A stretch of 37,577 nt of DNA. It comes from a virus (taxonomy: Duplodnaviria > Heunggongvirae > Uroviricota > Caudoviricetes). Positions within the stretch are counted from its first letter, which is position 1. The number at the start of each line of letters is the position of its first letter. The stretch lies in the IMG/VR virus record IMGVR_UViG_2529292717_000013; one strand, 5' to 3'. The position numbers and the translations under genes were made by a program. Below the pieces are notes generated by a model. That model saw only the letters and a program-made list of their open reading frames with translations. It made no database searches and was not told the origin of the DNA. This document shows, piece after piece, positions 4,819 to 17,525 of this stretch.

Positions 4819-4940
4819 GAAACCAGAACATGCACACACAAAAAAACCGCTTGCCATGCCGCAATCAGTCAGGTTACATTTCCGCTGCACCTCATAAAAC
4901 GGGTGCCGGGTTTCGCAGCCCGCTGACAAACGTAGCGCAC

Positions 4941-4962
4941 AACCGCGCCAGCGGTTTTTTTG
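4941..4962 (+). terminator. candidate rho-independent terminator (AACCGC-GCCA-GCGGTT + T7)
   Basis: Stem-loop followed by a T-run, about 120 bp after the 99-aa ORF. Confidence 0.4.
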
Positions 4963-5140
4963 TGCGTACTGTATCGCCACGTCTTTTTCGCATCTGAATT
5001 ATGGTGGGGCGTACGGGGCCGACTTCGGTCGGGCCGGGTTCTGCGTTTGCCGGTACTGCGAACCTCGTACGTCTCGCCACCCACAGTTTCGCAGCTCTGG
5101 ATGGTGAGTTTTCACAACTTACACACGTAGAGGCCACACC

Positions 5141-5813: not shown

Positions 5814-8633
5814 ATGACGGCAGAGTACATCAGGGACTGGCAACAACCGCGCCACGCAGTGGGGCGTGAAGGAACGGGGATCCCCGCTCCTGAATCCGCG
5901 CTTTCCTCCTGGCTGGATGCCTACCGGGCAGAGAACGAGCGCCGCCAGGAAATGGCTGATGCGGCGTTCTCCGCCACGCCGCTGGGCAACCTGATTAATA
6001 AAAGCCTGGACGCACAGGAAAAACAGGACAAAACCATCACACTGGCAGGAGACGCCAGAAAACAGGCACGTGGCGCGGTGGATGAAGCCATGGCCTCGCT
6101 GCGCCTGCTGCCGTCCTATCTGCGCGATCCGCTTATTCGCCACCTCTCCTTCCTGCGCAAAAAACAGGAAGCCGATCGCCGGAAAGGCAAAAAGAGCTGG
6201 CAGGCTGAACGCTACGCGCGCGGGACCCTGCGCAAAATATTCGAACGTCTGGATCGCACTGACGGGCGCTGGCTGACACCGGGTTATCGCTCCCTTGCCG
6301 GGCGCGAACGCCTGGACGATTTGCTTTACCTGCCGCAGCTCAACAAGCACCAGATACAGACGCTGGCCACCATGACGGCGGCGATGTTCAGCAGCACCTT
6401 CGAAAAACTCTGCGATGGCTTTGGCGCGACTGATGGCGAGCTGACCATGGATGTAACGCTGAAGGCTTATCAGATGCTGGCCCGCATGGCGTTACACCTG
6501 CACGCCATGCCTCCACATTATGACGCACTGACAACAGACAAAGACCGGAGGAACGAACCGGACACGGAGCTGCTGCCGGGCGCAATCCTTCGCTTGACCT
6601 GTGCGGAATGGTGGAAACGCAAACTATGGCTGTTGCGTTGTGAGTGGCGGGAAGAACAACTCCGCGCCGCCTGTCTGGTTTCCAGAAAAACATCCCCCTA
6701 TCTGAGCCAGGACGCGTTAAGCGAGTTTCGCGCACAGCGCGAGAAAACACGCGATTTCCTGAAAAGTTTCATGCTGGAAAATGAAGACGGGTTCACGATT
6801 GATCTCGAGACGGTGTATTACGCGGGAGTAAGTAACCCGGTTCACCGTAAGGCAGAAATGATGGCCACCATGAAGGGGCTGGAACTTCTGGCCGAAGCCC
6901 GTGGCGACAAAGCGGTGTTTCTGACTGTCACCTGCCCGTCAAAATACCACGCCACAACAGAGAACGGTCATCCGAACCCCAAATGGAACGGGGCCACCAT
7001 GCGCGACTCCAGCGATTACCTGGTTAACACGTTTTTTGCGGCGGTCCGCAAAAAACTGAACCGCGACGGCCTGCGCTGGTATGGCATCCGCACGGTGGAG
7101 CCTCACCATGACGGCACTGTGCACTGGCATATGATGGTCTTTGCACATCCGGACGAGATTGAAACCATCGTGTCCCACGTCTGCGATATTGCCATTCAGG
7201 AGCCGCCACGAGCTGGGCGATGACATAACTCCGCGTTTTAAGGCGGAGTACGTGACGGCTCAAAAGGCACACCAACCAGCTACATCGCCACCTACATCGG
7301 AAAGAACCTGGACAGCCGCGCCGTGGATGGCATCGACCCGAAAACGGGCAAGCCACGCGTTGACCACGAAACCGGAAAATCAATGGCCGAGAGCGTGGAA
7401 CGCGCCATCGGCTGGGCGCGCCTTCACCGGGTCCGCCAGTTCCAGTTCTTTGGCATCCCCTCCCGTCAGGTGTGGCGTGAACTCCGCCGCCTTGCCAGCC
7501 AGATGGCACGCAACCCGGAAGGCCCGCAACGGCTGAAGGATGACGCAATGGATGCGGTACTCGCTGCCGCTGATGCAGGATGTTTTGCCACCTACATAGA
7601 GAAACAGGGCGGCGTACTTGTTCCACGCAAAGACTACCTGATTCGCACCGCCTACGACCTCGCCGATGAGCTGAACGATTACGGCGAACAGAGCGTACAG
7701 ATTTACGGGATCTGGTCACCACTCATCGGGGAATCCTCCCGTGTGTGCACGCATCCGGATAACTGGAAGCTGGTAAGACGCAAACCGGAAGCGGAAGACA
7801 GCGCCCGCGAAAATGGTTTTGACCTTCAGGGCGGCCCTGCCGCCCCTTGGACTCGTGGCAATAACTGTCCCCGTGTACAGGAAACAGGCAACAGCGGGAC
7901 AGAACAGTCGAAAGAACGGCCAGCACCGTGGCCGCAGCTTCCTGACGGCGTTGAAGTGAACGAATGGATGCGCTCACTGAAACGGCACGAACGCCGGGCG
8001 CTGATGCGTTCGCTTCGTGACAAACAGGTAAAAAACAGCAGTGATGAAATGCAGAGCTGGACACAGAGCCGCAAACAGCAGCGGCCTTTGCCTGATAACC
8101 ACGAATTACTCGCTAAAGAATGGCGGGAGTCTGCCGAATCTCTCGGCCTGCATATCGGTGAACAGCAGATGCAGCACCTGCTACGGGGCGGCAGCCTGTA
8201 CGTTGACGGCAGCATCATTGCACCGCAGGGATATGAAATTGTACGCAAACCGGATACCCGCCCGGACAGCCGAATCACGCAGCTCTGGCAGCACCTGAGC
8301 CGTAATCACGGCGTAAGCAGCACGGAGATCCGCCATAACCCGGTCGCCAGCTATCTGGCACAGCTGGGGGCATCAGACCCCGAAGCCGCCGCACGCCTGG
8401 CATCCGCACTTCAGCAGGATCAGAACACCATGAAAACACCCGTTACCGTGCTTTCTGACATGCTGCGCGCCATCCGCGACGCAGAGCACGCACAGAGAAT
8501 CAGTGAAACCACTGAACGCGCCAGCCGCAAAGCAGACCTGCTGCAGGGTGGCCTGACCAGTGGAAACAAAAAACAGACAGAAACGGGATCCACAAATCCC
8601 GTAAATGAGCAAAAAACGCGCCGCGATATATGA
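5814..8633 (+). pseudogene. A: replication initiation endonuclease A (rolling-circle initiator, GPA family); frame interrupted at about 7195-7270
   Basis: Track ORFs 5814..7223 and 7323..8633 are in the same frame, separated by in-frame TGA (7221) and TAA (7239), while the +1 frame is open across the gap. HWHMMVF and YIATYIGKNLD motifs present. Confidence 0.8.
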
Positions 8634-9985: not shown

Positions 9986-10105
9986 AAGCATCTGCGCGAA
10001 AAATGCTCACATTTATAGAAACAGTATCATTCCATTTGGCGCACTTACTTCAATAATCGATCTGTTAAACAAATAGATTGTCTATTATCTATCGATTAAA
10101 ACGAT

Positions 10106-10170
10106 CAATTATCTTGACAGTAATGTGCCTTTTTGTAAGATCGTTCGCATTGTGAGCGACAAGATAATTG
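10106..10170 (+). promoter_or_regulatory. candidate promoter (TTGACA-N16-TAAGAT) bracketed by an 11-bp inverted repeat CAATTATCTTG / CAAGATAATTG
   Basis: Read directly; the -35 hexamer overlaps the left arm. Confidence 0.35.
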
Positions 10171-10247
10171 CGCGGCATTGTCCATGCAAAACGCCCCAAT
10201 AGCAGCAACTATTGGGGCGTAGAACTCGGTCGGACTCACTTAACCTG

Positions 10248-10331
10248 ATATGCGTGCCTTCCGAAGTAAATCAAAATGTGCGTCGTATATTTTATTGCTT
10301 ACACGCACCTCTGTAAAGGCACGCATATTTT
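10248..10331 (+). terminator. large hairpin (13-bp perfect inverted repeat ATATGCGTGCCTT, 55-nt spacer with nested inverted repeat) followed by a T-run; candidate attenuator in the ORF89 leader
   Basis: Inverted repeat arms at about 10248-10260 and 10316-10328, then TTTTT; ends about 20 bp before the ORF89 start. Confidence 0.4.
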
Positions 10332-10349
10332 TCCTATGAGGTAAATAAA

Positions 10350-10619
10350 GTGCGGGCTAAAACAGGTATTTGCAAGAATCCTCATCGTTATAACCCAACA
10401 TTTCTGTCTCTCCCTGAATATCAAGGACAAGAAGGTCGGCACAAATGCGCTGCCTGTGCTTTTGAGCTAGGCATAAAAGATGCGCTTGAAGGACGCGCTA
10501 TGGCTCAGAATGATTTAGTTTTAGCTAACATTCCGTTTAGCCAGGCTGGAACTGTAAGGCACAGAGATGCTTATGAAGCATATGTTCGTGGTTGGCGATT
10601 AATACACAGCAACAATTGA
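10350..10619 (+). CDS. hypothetical Cys/His-rich small protein (hotspot cargo)
   Basis: 89-aa ORF with GTG start and GAGG RBS; CKNPHRY...HKCAACAFE suggests metal binding. Confidence 0.5.
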   Translation: MRAKTGICKNPHRYNPTFLSLPEYQGQEGRHKCAACAFELGIKDALEGRAMAQNDLVLANIPFSQAGTVRHRDAYEAYVRGWRLIHSNN

Positions 10620-10627
10620 TATTTTTG

Positions 10628-10651
10628 AAGCGCCGATAAGGCGCTTTTTTT
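10628..10651 (+). terminator. rho-independent terminator (AAGCGCC-GATAA-GGCGCTT + T-run)
   Basis: Directly after the ORF89 stop. Confidence 0.6.
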
Positions 10652-11179
10652 GTTTGCACGATAGTGCACAAGTTTGCACAATTTTTTTGAACGACTTTTT
10701 GTACTTCCGGCCCGCGTGGCGGCTGGATCCGTCAAGGATCCGTACGTGCACAAAAAACGCGTTTTTTCTACGCGCAGGTGACGGGGGAACAGCCCGCGTT
10801 TCAGGGGGTAAATAGCATTCCCTGAACGATGTCGCAGAGACACAACAGAATGGCCATATTTCTCACGCTGAGCATGAAAAAGGCGTGAGGGCTTTTGATT
10901 TGATGGGGTGAAAGGTAAGGCCGTCAAAATCGCACTGAGGCAGCGAGAACATACAGTCAACGTGGTGGGATTGCGTAAGAGTCTGACCGTCGATGGTGGC
11001 GATAAACTGGAAGGCGTCGTGAAATTATCTGATTGATACAGGAGCTGGAGAGTCGGGGCATAAATTTTTTATGCCCCGGCGAAGCAGCAGACAAGCGAAG
11101 CGCGTCAGCGATACGGCACCTTGCCGACCATACTTCGTAAGTGCAAAATACGAGCAAAGAAATCAATGGAGGCTGTCTT

Positions 11180-11704
11180 ATGGTCATTAATTACAAGCAG
11201 TTAAGAGAAAAACGGGAGCAGGTAAAGGAGAGCTTTCGCCGCAATGAAGATCTGACCCCGCTTGTACGCCTTGCCCAGGGCATTGTTGATGCTTATGAAA
11301 TCTCGCTGGAGCTGCCATCACAGACCTGGACAGATAGCGACGGTAATCGCCAGCATTACGTTTCATGCGGACTGGAAGCAGCCGAAGGATTTCGCAGAAT
11401 GCCTTTATCTCAGATCCCTGCCGCTACCCCCAAAGCAAGGGGCGGCAATGATGAGCGAAAACTGATTTTCAGCATTGAGACAGTGGTTGACGACACACCT
11501 GGCGAAGTCGCCTTCGTGCATACTCCTCTTTCGATCGCAATGTATAACGATGAAATACAGGTTCGCGTTAATAATAATATCGTGCCACTTAAAGAAGGTA
11601 ATTCACCCTACACCACCGTTTGTGAAGCCATTCAATATTACGTTTTCTCTGAAATTGATAATCTCAAGCCTGACGGCACCCAGAAAATGGTTCAGCTCTG
11701 GTAA
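11180..11704 (+). CDS. hypothetical protein (hotspot cargo)
   Basis: 174 aa from the ATG at 11180 with a GGAGG RBS 7 nt upstream; no family recognised. Confidence 0.5.
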   Translation: MVINYKQLREKREQVKESFRRNEDLTPLVRLAQGIVDAYEISLELPSQTWTDSDGNRQHYVSCGLEAAEGFRRMPLSQIPAATPKARGGNDERKLIFSIETVVDDTPGEVAFVHTPLSIAMYNDEIQVRVNNNIVPLKEGNSPYTTVCEAIQYYVFSEIDNLKPDGTQKMVQLW

Positions 11705-11735
11705 AAAGGACAGCCCCATCACGGGGCTGTTTTTT
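11705..11735. terminator. bidirectional rho-independent terminator between ORF174 and Q
   Basis: A-run, ACAGCCCC-atcac-GGGGCTGT, T-run. Confidence 0.6.
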
Positions 11736-12765
11736 CATCAAGAAGAGCATAAGAGTTAAAACGGATCACCTCTTCGCCAAGCCAGTCATTGATGTGCTTC
11801 ATGGCCTCCATAACGGGCATCAGCTCGTTAATTGCGTAAACCCGCGCGGCCTTCTCCACATCACCAAACGCACTTTTTTCGCCCGGCATCGCCCCCATCA
11901 GTTGCGGCGGAACACGGTGCGCAGCCAGCACATCATCACGGGATGCCGCCTTAACATTCATGAACTCATCTTTTGCGGTGATCTGCTGGAACGGCAAAAT
12001 TTGCACCCCCTCTTTGCCCCCGTTGGGCGCATGAATGAGCACGTTTTTAAACGCACCACCACCACGTGCCCCCTGTAGCGTTTCTTTCAGGGAGTCCATG
12101 CTTTCGCGGTTTACCTGCGCTGCACCGATGTAGATGATGCACCCGGCGTGGGATCCGTTGTCGTAGTACAGTTTTCTGAACATGTCCGCCGAATGAGAAA
12201 GGCTGGCCGAGAGTAATGCGCCAAGATATTCCGGCATGCCGTAGATTTCCTGGTTAATATCCGGATTCATCAGGTGGCACACTTTGCCAGGACGAAACTG
12301 AAACGCGTCCTTGCCATCCTGCACATACCACCATGATTCAAGATCGCTTCCGCGTCGCATGTATTTCGCCAGGGCGTGCCGTAATTTAAGCGGTTCGCCG
12401 AGCATATTGCTCCGAAGCTCAAGGAATGCGTTACCGAACACAAACCAGTCCAGCGCCAGCGCCGAGAAATCCTGCCGGGAAAGCAGCGGGTGCGGAATAT
12501 AGCAGCCGAGCAATACATTGCGCTTAAAGTAAAGCGCAGACTGATGCCAGGACGTTTGCCGGGCAGCTCTTGCCAGACCGTACCAGTCCACCGGGGTTTC
12601 ATACCACCGCCCGTTATCAGCACAGTACATATTGTCCAGCAGGTCATGCCCGGTCAGGCGATAAGGACCATCAAATGTGAATGCACTGAGCGATGATTCT
12701 TTCCTGAGCGCATCAGCGAGATCAATGCGTGAACTCATGCGCACTTTTTTATTTTTTCTGCTCAT
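11719..12765 (-). CDS. Q: portal protein
   Basis: 348 aa; homology to P2 gpQ by recollection; adjacent to and co-oriented with the large terminase. Confidence 0.9.
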   Translation of the reverse strand: MSRKNKKVRMSSRIDLADALRKESSLSAFTFDGPYRLTGHDLLDNMYCADNGRWYETPVDWYGLARAARQTSWHQSALYFKRNVLLGCYIPHPLLSRQDFSALALDWFVFGNAFLELRSNMLGEPLKLRHALAKYMRRGSDLESWWYVQDGKDAFQFRPGKVCHLMNPDINQEIYGMPEYLGALLSASLSHSADMFRKLYYDNGSHAGCIIYIGAAQVNRESMDSLKETLQGARGGGAFKNVLIHAPNGGKEGVQILPFQQITAKDEFMNVKAASRDDVLAAHRVPPQLMGAMPGEKSAFGDVEKAARVYAINELMPVMEAMKHINDWLGEEVIRFNSYALLDEKTAP

Positions 12766-14516
12766 CAGAACTCCATAACCGTGAAACGCTCGTTTTCTCC
12801 TTCGCCGCCAATCGGTTCATTAATGACAGCAAGCATGGTTGCCCACGCAAGGTCGCCGTGGCTGATCCCCCTCGCTCGGTCCGTTTCGTAAGTGATAAAG
12901 CCGCCCGGTGTTTTCACCTTACGCACGGCGTTAAAGGCCGCGACCAGCTCGCGTTCGGCACGATCGTATTCCCACCGCCCGGCACGCATTATTTGCAGCA
13001 TTTTCAGTACCAGCGACCGTTTTGATGACAGCGTGAAGGTGTACGGAATAGCAGCAGGGAAAAACCGTTTCACTATCTGATAAACGGCATCCCCGTGCCC
13101 GCCAGTCGCATCAATGCCGATGTGTTCCACGTTGTAGCGACACGTGAACTCTTCAATGACTCTGGCCTGTTCTTCAAACTCCAGCCCCTGAACGCGTCGC
13201 GTCTCCACCGTTCGAAAACGGCCACCAGGAACAGCCGGAGGAACCACCACGGACACCGCGCCGCTGTCGCCGTTTCCACTGCTGCCGTTTGCGTCATACC
13301 CAATCCATACCGGACGATTCCCCATCGGGCGGGGAGCAAAAGGTTTCCAGTCTTTCCAGTCGTCGTATCCATCAACACCGCAGCCAATCAGGATATTCAG
13401 GTTAAATGCCGATTCCCCTTCGCGGACAAACTCACACATATAGAGATTGCGGAACTCGTCTTCGGTGTTTTCATCACGAATTTCATCAATATCGGTGTGT
13501 TTCCAGCCGTGATTAACCACATCTTCCAGCGTGACAATTTGCCGCCACGTCCGGTCGGGGCAGATAAGTCCGTTATGCAGCGTTTTCCAGTCCACAGAAA
13601 AACGCTGGCGTTTATGCGCGGCCTTTTTCTCGTTCCAGCGGTCGCCGTTCCAATAGACGTATGCCTCGTGCGTTTCGGTGGATGGCGTGGAGAAGTAGGT
13701 GCGCCGCAGTCCGCTGAGGGTTGCCATAGCGCCAGCCACCTTGCGCAGTTCAGCAAAGCGACTGACCCAGAAAAATTCATCAAAATAAAAATTGCCTGTG
13801 TAGGACTGTGCCGTCGCAGCAGAAGTACCGAGAAAATGCAGTTCTGCGCCGTTGGAGAGGATGATTTTATCGCCCCCTTTCAGCTCCACATCAACTTCAG
13901 CCGCGGCCTTCTGAATAATGCTTTTAAACTGGAACGCCTGACGACGCGACGCAGACAAAAAAATCTGGTTACGCTGGTAAGGTTGTGCCACATCGTCACG
14001 CAGCGCCATCAGCAGTGCTTCCTGTGCAAAATACCAGGTCGCCCCAATCTGTCGGGATTTCAGGATCATCCTGTTACGTATCCCGGCTTCACTGCAAAGG
14101 GTCAGGGAGTCAAACCAGCCCCGCTGATGCCACTCCAGCCTGCTGATGATTTTTTCCCGCAGTGCGGCAATCTGCTCCGGCGTGAAATGATTTTTAAGTT
14201 TTTTCGCCCGGCCTTTCTTTCCTGTGGCCGTCGCATCCGGCTGGCCATCATGCAGTTTTTTAAGCTGCCGGGTCAGCAGGTCTATTTCCTTAAAGTCACC
14301 ACCTGTTTTATTCTGTTTTTCAGTAAGCTGGATGAGGCGCGCATCGATGGACTGCGTGACACGCTGCACGGGTGGCGTTTCATCCCACTGGTCGCGTTTT
14401 TTCCACGCATAAATCGTGTTCGGGTTTATTCCCATCAGACGTGATATTTCTGCGGGCGGATAACCCTGCCAGTAAAGTTGCCGCGCACGCTGGCGCACAA
14501 AAGCGTCCTGAATCAT
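12765..14516 (-). CDS. P: terminase large (ATPase) subunit
   Basis: 583 aa; P2 gpP-like. Confidence 0.9.
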   Translation of the reverse strand: MIQDAFVRQRARQLYWQGYPPAEISRLMGINPNTIYAWKKRDQWDETPPVQRVTQSIDARLIQLTEKQNKTGGDFKEIDLLTRQLKKLHDGQPDATATGKKGRAKKLKNHFTPEQIAALREKIISRLEWHQRGWFDSLTLCSEAGIRNRMILKSRQIGATWYFAQEALLMALRDDVAQPYQRNQIFLSASRRQAFQFKSIIQKAAAEVDVELKGGDKIILSNGAELHFLGTSAATAQSYTGNFYFDEFFWVSRFAELRKVAGAMATLSGLRRTYFSTPSTETHEAYVYWNGDRWNEKKAAHKRQRFSVDWKTLHNGLICPDRTWRQIVTLEDVVNHGWKHTDIDEIRDENTEDEFRNLYMCEFVREGESAFNLNILIGCGVDGYDDWKDWKPFAPRPMGNRPVWIGYDANGSSGNGDSGAVSVVVPPAVPGGRFRTVETRRVQGLEFEEQARVIEEFTCRYNVEHIGIDATGGHGDAVYQIVKRFFPAAIPYTFTLSSKRSLVLKMLQIMRAGRWEYDRAERELVAAFNAVRKVKTPGGFITYETDRARGISHGDLAWATMLAVINEPIGGEGENERFTVMEF

Positions 14517-16627: not shown

Positions 16628-17422
16628 ATGATTACTCCTGCACAGCAACACTGGCAGAACGTGATGGCACAGCGCGCAGGCCGGGCGAATGAAGGCGTGG
16701 ACCATGCCGCGCGTACCGCGCATGAAGAGGTGCTGTATCGTCTGCGTCTGGCACAGGCCCGGCTTAAGGGCGTACAGGCCAGAAGCGCGAAAGCCGCCAT
16801 CAAAAAAGAGTTATTGCCGGACTTTTCCGGCTGGATTGAGGGAACGCTGGAGGCTGACGGCGGGCAGCAGGATGAAGTGATTGCCACGCTGATGGTGTGG
16901 GCGATTGACTGCGGCGATCTTCCGCTTGCGCTGCGTATTGGTGCTATGTGGTCCGTCACAACCTCATCATGCCGGATAACTTTGGACGTACTGCTGCCAC
17001 GGTACTGACCGAAGAAATCTGTAATCCGGTACTGACGCAGGCCGGGACGGATGCCGACGCGGATTTGTCCGCCTTTATCGAACCACTGGACACCCTCCGG
17101 GAGATTGTCACCGACCAGGACATGCCGGACGAAGTGCGCGCCAAATTATGCAAGCGTGCGCCTTTGCCCGCCGTGGCCTGAGATGCGGACAGCATGGCCT
17201 TCACTGAAGCTGCTGCGCGAAGCGATGCACCTGAACCCGAACGCAGGTGTGAAACGCGAGATTGCAACCCTTTCCCGCGCCCTGAAAAAAGCCGATTCCG
17301 CAGCCGCACCAGAAGATGCCAGCACACCGCAGGCGCAGGACGAAAGCAGCAAAAGTAAAAAGACAACGCGGAAGCCTGCAACACGAAAAACCACCGCGAC
17401 GCAGAAGGCGAAGCGCGGTTAA
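16628..17422 (+). pseudogene. M: terminase small (endonuclease) subunit; two frame changes at about 16945 and about 17178
   Basis: Three track ORFs (16628..17008, 16948..17181, 17051..17422) in frames 2/1/2 each match consecutive segments of gpM, including MPDEVRAKL and AGVKREI. Confidence 0.8.
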
Positions 17423-17525
17423 CGACTGACCCCGTCAGCGGGCGGCGTGCGCGGTGTTCCGGTTTGACTCCGTGACCGTTTACACCGCGCACCCACCGCC
17501 CGATTTTTTTCAGGAGTGAACCCCC

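Follow-up and report, generated by a model that had tools for sequence, protein, structure and literature searches.

A predicted P2-family cos site and a separate hairpin module next to the portal gene of a P88-like prophage

Introduction

The cohesive ends of phage P2 have an overhang of 19 nt, compared to 12 nt in phage λ. The λ cos site consists of a nicking site (cosN) and of cosB, whose R3, R2 and R1 boxes are bound by the small terminase subunit gpNu1, with a bend introduced by IHF. For P2-type cos, the minimal fragment is reportedly ~125 bp long.

Within the P2 family, cos sites have been described for P2, 186 and P4, and a 55-bp core common to P2 and P4 is attributed to Ziermann & Calendar 1990 (Gene 96:9; cited in PMC5694545, PMC3931495, PMC9122126 and PMC9594776). 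In P2-like prophages generally, cos lies between gpA and gpQ (Rousset et al., PMC9122126), and P2 satellites, including P4, have only cos in common with their helper (PMC9122126). Cargo genes can occupy the interval between cos and the portal gene, as with ctx in phiCTX and ORF1–4 of phiRSY1 (PMC5694545), and the retrons Ec67 and Ec86 lie between cos and the terminator in 186-like prophages (Dodd & Egan 1996, cited in PMC5694545). Our literature search returned no cos described for P88 or for the genus Xuanwuvirus.

Here, we analyse a stretch of 37,577 nucleotides (IMG/VR record IMGVR_UViG_2529292717_000013; hereafter, the window). An earlier note on its sequence had singled out positions 10652–11140 as one non-coding region dense in repeats and hairpins, which might encode a structured non-coding RNA or form an array of protein-binding sites, with ParR and the neighbouring hotspot proteins as suggested binders. 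We place a P2-family cos site in this region. Such elements are known, yet none has been annotated in this lineage, and the finding will not surprise a specialist.

Results

The region sits between the variable right-end genes and the portal gene

The window, which has the same layout as Escherichia phage 520873, is a P88-like prophage of the genus Xuanwuvirus (family Peduoviridae). Its gene order runs from a replication gene through ParM and ParR (PF06406 and PF10784 in Pfam), the plus-strand cargo ORF 10350–10619 (phrog_3941), the cos/hairpin region and a second cargo ORF, probably at 11180–11704, to the genes for the portal (11719–12765) and the large terminase subunit (12765–14516), both on the minus strand. 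P2-type terminase genes are present (PF06056 and PF03237/PF17289, gpP-like; PF05944, gpM-like). The region is thus flanked by the gpA/variable right-end part on one side and by the 3′ end of the converging portal gene (gpQ) on the other, as P2-family cos sites are, and the interval between the variable right-end genes and the portal 3′ end holds cos in the P2 and 186 records. Elsewhere in the window, two Rfam families matched above their gathering scores, the isrK Hfq-binding RNA at 4887–4961 (69.6 bits) and, directly after it, the C4 antisense RNA at 4997–5084 (80.4 bits), which form a P1/P7-type immunity RNA pair within a P2-like prophage.

The earlier note had treated the region as a single element, and it proved to be a composite of three: a predicted cos site, a spacer and a hairpin module. 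The features that we assign to it and to its flanks are as follows.

10627..10651, plus strand: intrinsic terminator of cargo ORF 10350–10619, GAAGCGCC-GATAA-GGCGCTT followed by a T-run (terminator scan)
10655..10679, plus strand: boxes R1–R3, TGCAC at 10655, 10665 and 10675, exactly 10 bp apart; putative terminase recognition array
10680..10746, plus strand: R3–R4 spacer, fixed at 67 nt, with a T7 run at 10682–10688 and the imperfect inverted repeat CCGGCC-N8-GGCTGG at 10704–10723
10747..10757, plus strand: box R4, TGCAC and an A-run; left end of the stretch matching the P2/P4 55-bp core
10758..10776, plus strand: spacer from R4 to the cut site, with the inverted repeat CGCGT (10758–10762) / ACGCG (10770–10774)
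10777..10795, plus strand: predicted cohesive-end core (cosN equivalent), GGTGACGGGGGAACAGCCC, G-rich; cut positions predicted to within about 2 nt
10796..10807, plus strand: right flank of the core, GCGTTTCAGGGG, also conserved; beyond it, genera are no longer similar
10808..11036, no strand assigned: lineage-specific spacer under weak constraint, with a 42-aa ORF at 10908–11036 and, overlapping its left edge, the TTCAGGG/CCCTGAA hairpin (10800–10826)
11040..11108, minus strand: long-hairpin module, the stem-loop CGGGGCATAAA-TTT-TTTATGCCCCG at 11054–11078 with its flanks
11109..11718, plus strand: cargo cassette that separates the hairpin module from the portal stop codon; its likely ORF is 11180–11704, phrog_5091

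The left edge of the conserved module is marked by the terminator at 10627–10651, which is itself outside cos. On the right, the non-coding region probably extends past the end at 11140 given earlier to 11180, where an ATG, the likely ORF start, is preceded by GGAGG at 11168–11172. The overlapping minus-strand ORFs at 10571–10960 and 10957–11187, said earlier to look spurious, have no Pfam or PHROG match.

Every motif listed by the earlier note was found within 10652–11140: GTTTGCAC at 10652 and 10672; TGCACAA at 10665, 10675 and 10747; GGATCCGT at 10725 and 10736, which form GGATCCGT-CAA-GGATCCGT at 10725–10743 within the R3–R4 spacer; the 16-bp perfect palindrome AAAAAACGCGTTTTTT at 10752–10767; TTCAGGG at 10800 with its partner CCCTGAA at 10820; and GGGGCATAAA at 11055 with its partner TTTATGCCCC at 11068. 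Not all of these motifs are meaningful, however, because the GGATCCGT repeat, scored as an inverted repeat, did not exceed chance (p about 0.08), the perfect palindrome is private to the window allele (relatives read A7-CGCG-(C/T)-T5), and the TTCAGGG/CCCTGAA hairpin is broken in one relative (L001) and missing from other genera. The second GGATC of the GGATCCGT pair is the only one retained outside the E. coli lineage.

Four TGCAC boxes and a G-rich core have the layout of a P2-family cos site

Sequence comparison predicts, with high confidence, that positions 10655–10807 are the cos site, or DNA-packaging site, of this P88-like prophage. The earlier suggestion of a protein-binding site array fits this left third of the region, which combines phased repeats with a conserved P2-family cos layout. 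To define that layout, which was derived in this analysis from P2, P4 and 186, we joined the ends of the three phage records and counted distances from the first base of the annotated 19-nt cohesive ends; it consists of four boxes with a 67-nt gap between the third and the fourth. In the window, TGCAC boxes stand at −122, −112, −102 and −30 relative to the core, and the phased array TGCAC-N5-TGCAC-N5-TGCAC is found a single time in the window and in none of 100 shuffles. TGCACAA was not enriched across the window (6 found vs 9.6 expected), yet three of the six copies lie within 89 bp. TGCAC itself is under-represented in the window (69 found vs 113.7 ± 10.9 expected from shuffles), and the four cos boxes account for six of the 69 counts, since the palindrome GTGCAC, which forms boxes 2 and 4, is counted once on each strand.

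The core GGTGACGGGGGAACAGCCC occurs once in the window (0.01 expected at three or fewer mismatches), and only 1 of its 19 columns varies among close relatives. The window contains no P2-identical cos (three or fewer mismatches). The overhang length and cut sites could differ from those of P2, because the core has mismatches to the P2 end at 6 of 19 positions and a 1-nt indel relative to relatives with GGCGAGG-type cores. No phage record began or ended at the core, and none of the 80 listed IMG/VR loci with an exact core, most of them prophage-derived, had a contig end there.

Between R4 and the core, sequence varies among genera and the distance is 29–32 nt; read on the minus strand, 10758–10776 is a hairpin with a T-run after it. 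In the R3–R4 spacer, the GC-rich inverted repeat was above chance in P4 and in loci with GGCGAGG-type cores and was not above chance in the window lineage. A candidate IHF site at the T-run after R3 was dropped, as its spacing, judged by eye, was off by one.

The cos layout is conserved across genera and in a satellite-type island

The region is carried by ~1,150 of 5,426 complete E. coli genomes. In most E. coli copies the match begins exactly at 10655, the first base of R1, whatever the left-hand cargo, and left of this position the sequence differs among relatives with different cargo. We also fetched 52 portal-linked loci from other species. Among these, 24 loci with portals 65–78% identical to that of the window, from genera that include Citrobacter, Edwardsiella, Serratia, Kosakonia, Pantoea and Erwinia, match only over about 10654–10810, and blastn matches from other genera stop at about 10798–10810. 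The full four-box layout was present in 33 of the 52 loci, where the core is either GGTGACGGGGG or the P2-like GGCGAGGCGGGGG. Each of the 22 GGTGAC-type loci among these 33 (from 20 or so genera) had an identical or nearly identical core, and the GGCGAGGCGGGGG cores of related loci are intermediate between the window core and that of P2. The layout was also found in 108 of 114 IMG/VR loci that have an exact core and enough flanking sequence. All 37 distinct sequences, with P2, P4 and 186 among them, had a gap of 67 nt between R3 and R4, as did 106 of the 108 IMG/VR loci.

Mean column identity was highest in R4 (0.99), followed by R1–R3 (0.89), the core (0.79) and the R3–R4 spacer (0.66), and was 0.43 in the 25 nt upstream of the array. 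Among ten close relatives, the fraction of variable columns was 0.05 in the core, 0.09 in the R1–R3 stretch and 0.32–0.34 across 10796–11036; in the portal gene of the same ten relatives it was 0.06 at second and 0.51 at third codon positions.

The cos module also occurs in an element that shares nothing else with the window. A satellite-type island in E. coli M15 (locus L068; NZ_CP185789.1, 4376167–4390323) has a cos at 7001–7157 of the locus, which is 78.8% identical to the window over the equivalent of 10655–10810, the only part in common, and which keeps the four-box layout. The island adjoins hpt/can, has GGTTACA iterons at ~6470–6760, and encodes an HTH regulator, an Icd-like protein, an 889-aa toprim primase, an integrase, an ogr/delta-like zinc finger, PemK/MazF and a 423-aa homologue of the P2-family major capsid protein (PF05125); neither a portal nor a terminase gene is annotated in it. 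The island variant of cos recurs, at 90% identity or more, in about 56 E. coli records. That a satellite island has only the cos module in common with the window supports a role in packaging, just as P4 shares only cos with P2.

These comparisons bear on what binds the boxes. ParM and ParR are encoded ~700 bp upstream of the repeats, and phased short repeats are typical of parC, so the boxes might in principle be a parC-like centromere, or an operator array for ParR or for cargo proteins. The same array is found at the same distances from cos in P2, P4 and 186, however, where the annotation flanking cos has no ParM/ParR genes, and it recurs in two relatives whose annotated flanks lack ParM (L059 and L063) and in the satellite-type island. 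It tracks the portal gene and cos rather than the left-hand cargo, and there are other candidates nearer parMR. We give this explanation almost no weight. The protein that binds the TGCAC boxes is likely to be terminase and not ParR.

The candidates nearer parMR lie in the 360-bp non-coding stretch that follows parR (9986–10349), which has two promoter-like sites and three perfect inverted repeats (10106–10116/10160–10170, 10191–10202/10209–10220 and 10248–10260/10316–10328). A parC-type or regulatory site is more plausibly placed here than in the region at 10652–11140.

The boxes could also be promoter or operator elements of the adjacent cargo genes. In P2, the old–tin transcript starts ~25–50 bp from three TGCAT boxes, and the boxes overlap the old–tin promoter region, where they may act in transcription. 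In the window, by contrast, there is no minus-strand gene to the left of the boxes, where ORF 10350–10619 is on the plus strand and has its own terminator; no promoter-like site was found; and the distances between boxes and cos are fixed across elements with unrelated neighbours. Thus, a promoter or operator function is most unlikely, and recognition by terminase remains our preferred reading of the boxes.

A drifting spacer separates cos from a conserved hairpin module

Positions 10808–11036 are not part of cos and constitute a drifting spacer, whose sequence is missing from other genera. The plus-strand GC skew across 10850–11050 is +0.3 to +0.36, and leftward read-through from the portal gene would therefore be C-rich and G-poor, like a Rho-utilisation region; this skew suggests that Rho-dependent termination might protect cos.

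The 42-aa ORF within the spacer (10908–11036) is annotated as a hypothetical protein in three phage records (P88, P884B11 and PhiR44_2) and is intact in most close relatives, as would be expected if it were a real small protein gene. Its variable sites are nevertheless distributed 14:16:13 over the three codon positions, with no bias, and the frame is interrupted by a stop codon in one relative (L006) and by a frameshift in another (L061) and has lost its stop codon in a third (L059). It has no Pfam or PHROG family, it starts with GTG and lacks a clear Shine–Dalgarno sequence, and it too is missing from other genera. We regard it as extremely improbable that this ORF is a gene, and read 10808–11036 as spacer.

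The long-hairpin module at 11040–11108 behaves differently from its surroundings. Of 1,184 E. coli records, 1,122 match it at 95% identity or more, so that it is better conserved than cos itself, and 2 of its 72 columns vary among close relatives. An 83-nt piece that contains the hairpin at 11054–11078 folded with z = −3.58, and none of 200 shuffles folded as well. Changes in the stem are compensated, including one G–T position, in loci L069 (2501–2565) and L070 (2501–2568), and these compensated copies lie in another P2-like prophage and in an integrative element. The copy in the integrative element is 79% identical and is located upstream of a replication gene of the STY4528 family. In two further loci (L081 and L093), the left flank GCTGCTTCGCC is the exact complement of the right flank GGCGAAGCAGC, giving arms of 21 bp.

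In most relatives, the module is positioned 27 nt past the portal stop codon, in the place of the P2 terminator tQ, and other genera have a GC hairpin and a T-run after the portal stop. The 11054–11078 stem is followed by no U-run on either strand, so it does not conform to the definition of an intrinsic (rho-independent) terminator, although its position matches that of P2 tQ and it may act like one. On the basis of this position, 11040–11108 is probably the 3′ hairpin, and a putative terminator or stabiliser, of the terminase–portal operon.

These results also bear on the earlier suggestion of a structured non-coding RNA, which could be an sRNA or a cis-regulatory leader. The region does contain several hairpins, of which the 11054–11078 stem is very stable and keeps its pairing by compensation, and the module around it varies less than the neighbouring sequence. 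The suggestion found no support, however, for most of the region. No Rfam family matched within the region at its gathering threshold (at E ≤ 10, the best match scored 18.7 bits against a threshold of 40), and no sigma-70-like promoter was found within 10652–11140. The interval 10796–11054 folded no better than shuffles (z of −1.25 on the plus and +0.61 on the minus strand), and 10796–11036 is the most variable stretch. The left part is conserved in P2, P4 and 186 as spacing of DNA and not as pairing, and the hairpin module is more simply explained as the 3′ hairpin of the portal operon. An RNA spanning the region is therefore very unlikely, and what survives of the suggestion is confined to 11040–11108, where pairing is kept.

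A second cargo site lies between cos and the portal gene

Similarity between the window and most relatives breaks off at 11108 and resumes in the portal gene. The intervening cassette has its own terminator-like hairpin at 11710–11730 (terminator scan), and the window, PhiR44_2 and a Salmonella locus all have a phrog_5091 gene interposed between hairpin module and portal stop codon. The interval from core to portal was 607–946 bp in 14 of 106 IMG/VR loci and 209–347 bp in the others. In E. coli B771 (L059), an unrelated 236-aa ORF (1761–2471) is found instead on the cos side of the hairpin. Judging by these sequences, the cos–portal interval is a second, smaller cargo site.

Discussion

The constant length of the R3–R4 spacer, compared to the drift of its sequence, suggests that a single nucleoprotein complex forms on both sites, with the DNA between them bent or wrapped. 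We propose that a P2-type terminase, whose small subunit is gpM-like and whose large subunit is gpP-like, would recognise the array of TGCAC boxes, with R1–R3 one helical turn apart and R4 and its A-tract exactly 72 bp beyond. The large subunit would then introduce staggered nicks about 25–30 bp past R4, within the core GGTGACGGGGGAACAGCCC, and, by analogy with P2, the products would be 19-nt 5′ cohesive ends. The binding protein, the exact cuts and the geometry of this complex are proposals that we infer from the observed location, layout and limits of conservation of the site and from its presence in a satellite-type island, and any terminator activity of the hairpin is likewise putative.

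Compared with the intact 266-aa gene of phage 520873, the gpM-like small-terminase gene of the window (16628–17425) lacks 1 nt near each of 16944 and 17153 and 2 nt near each of 17181 and 17200. These four deletions disrupt the frame over ~85 codons, and PF05944 matched only at profile positions 1–71 of 130. None of 1,064 E. coli genomes with the gene has these deletions (best match 98.1%, 361 vs 367 nt). The frameshifted copy may reflect a packaging-defective prophage that is unable to use its own cos, or errors of assembly or sequencing.

Placing cos at 10655–10807 has several consequences. In ~1,150 of 5,426 complete E. coli genomes, the site is currently left blank or overlaid with spurious "hypothetical protein" calls. 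Its placement divides the gpA–portal hotspot into two compartments, which matters for delimiting cargo and defence cassettes. Four boxes and a spacer of fixed length make up a testable layout for recognition by P2-type terminases, and the cos variant could decide which satellites are mobilised, and which cosmids are packaged, by a P88-like helper.

A broader reading, which we offer tentatively and consider rather less probable than its negation, joins three proposals. The TGCAC boxes and GGTGACGGGGGAACAGCCC core might define a packaging-specificity class apart from P2, 186 and P4, with satellites of its own, such as the E. coli M15-type island with its P2-family capsid gene. The invariant distance of 72 bp between the starts of R3 and R4 might reflect an undescribed architectural need, for example DNA wrapped once round the terminase ring. 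Separately, the 11040–11108 hairpin might be a mobile RNA or DNA structural module and not a plain terminator.

Comparison with known cos sites

The predicted site resembles the cos sites of P2, 186 and P4 in its position between the variable right-end genes and the portal 3′ end, in its four TGCAY boxes and in its 67-nt R3–R4 spacer. With P2 and P4 it also has in common an R4 box followed by an A-run, a short hairpin and a G-rich core flanked by GCGC. The terminase genes of the window are of the P2 type. In P2 and P4, the distance from the fourth box to the GCGCGC after the 19-mer is 55 bp, which matches the published 55-bp core. The end-points and order of that core in P2/P4 (TGCAT-TAAAA, hairpin, 19-mer, GCGCGC) are kept in the window as TGCAC and an A-run at −30, a short inverted repeat, the core and GCG, and its inner 20 nt are unrelated, so that the likeness is one of layout and not of sequence.

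The boxes are TGCAT in P2, P4 and 186, at −123/−124, −111, −101 and −29, whereas they are TGCAC in the window, at −122, −112, −102 and −30; R4 in the three phages is TGCATTAAAA. The spacing from R1 to R2 is 12–13 bp in P2, P4 and 186 compared to 10 bp in the window. The stretch from R4 to the core is unrelated in sequence to that of P2 and P4, which have the GC hairpin CCGCCCCG..AAGCGGGCGG in the place of the inverted repeat at 10758–10776. The P2 end, GGCGAGGCGGGGAAAGCAC, shares 13 of 19 bases with the window core and differs at 6, and the cohesive ends of P2, P4 and 186 are annotated, whereas those of the window lineage are predicted from sequence. The published ends of two other P2-like phages, phiRSA1 (GGTGAGGCGGGG...) and Smp131, resemble the window core. 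The distance from cos to the portal gene is ~190 bp in P2 and 186, ~330 bp in the window lineage and 942 bp in the window.

The window also resembles other P2-like cargo hotspots, in that ORF 11180–11704 lies between cos and the portal gene and relatives have either an empty site or a different ORF there. The cassette of the window is located between the hairpin and the portal stop codon, whereas the cargo of the E. coli B771 locus is on the cos side of the hairpin, as the retrons are. The λ cos site is alike in logic, with a nicking site, short repeats on one side that recruit terminase, and bending between the repeats. It has no sequence similarity to the predicted site and is served by other terminase families, however, and the resemblance is thus a functional analogy and not membership of one family. 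Membership lies instead with the cos sites of P2, 186 and P4, to which the four boxes, the 67-nt spacer and the G-rich core assign the predicted site.
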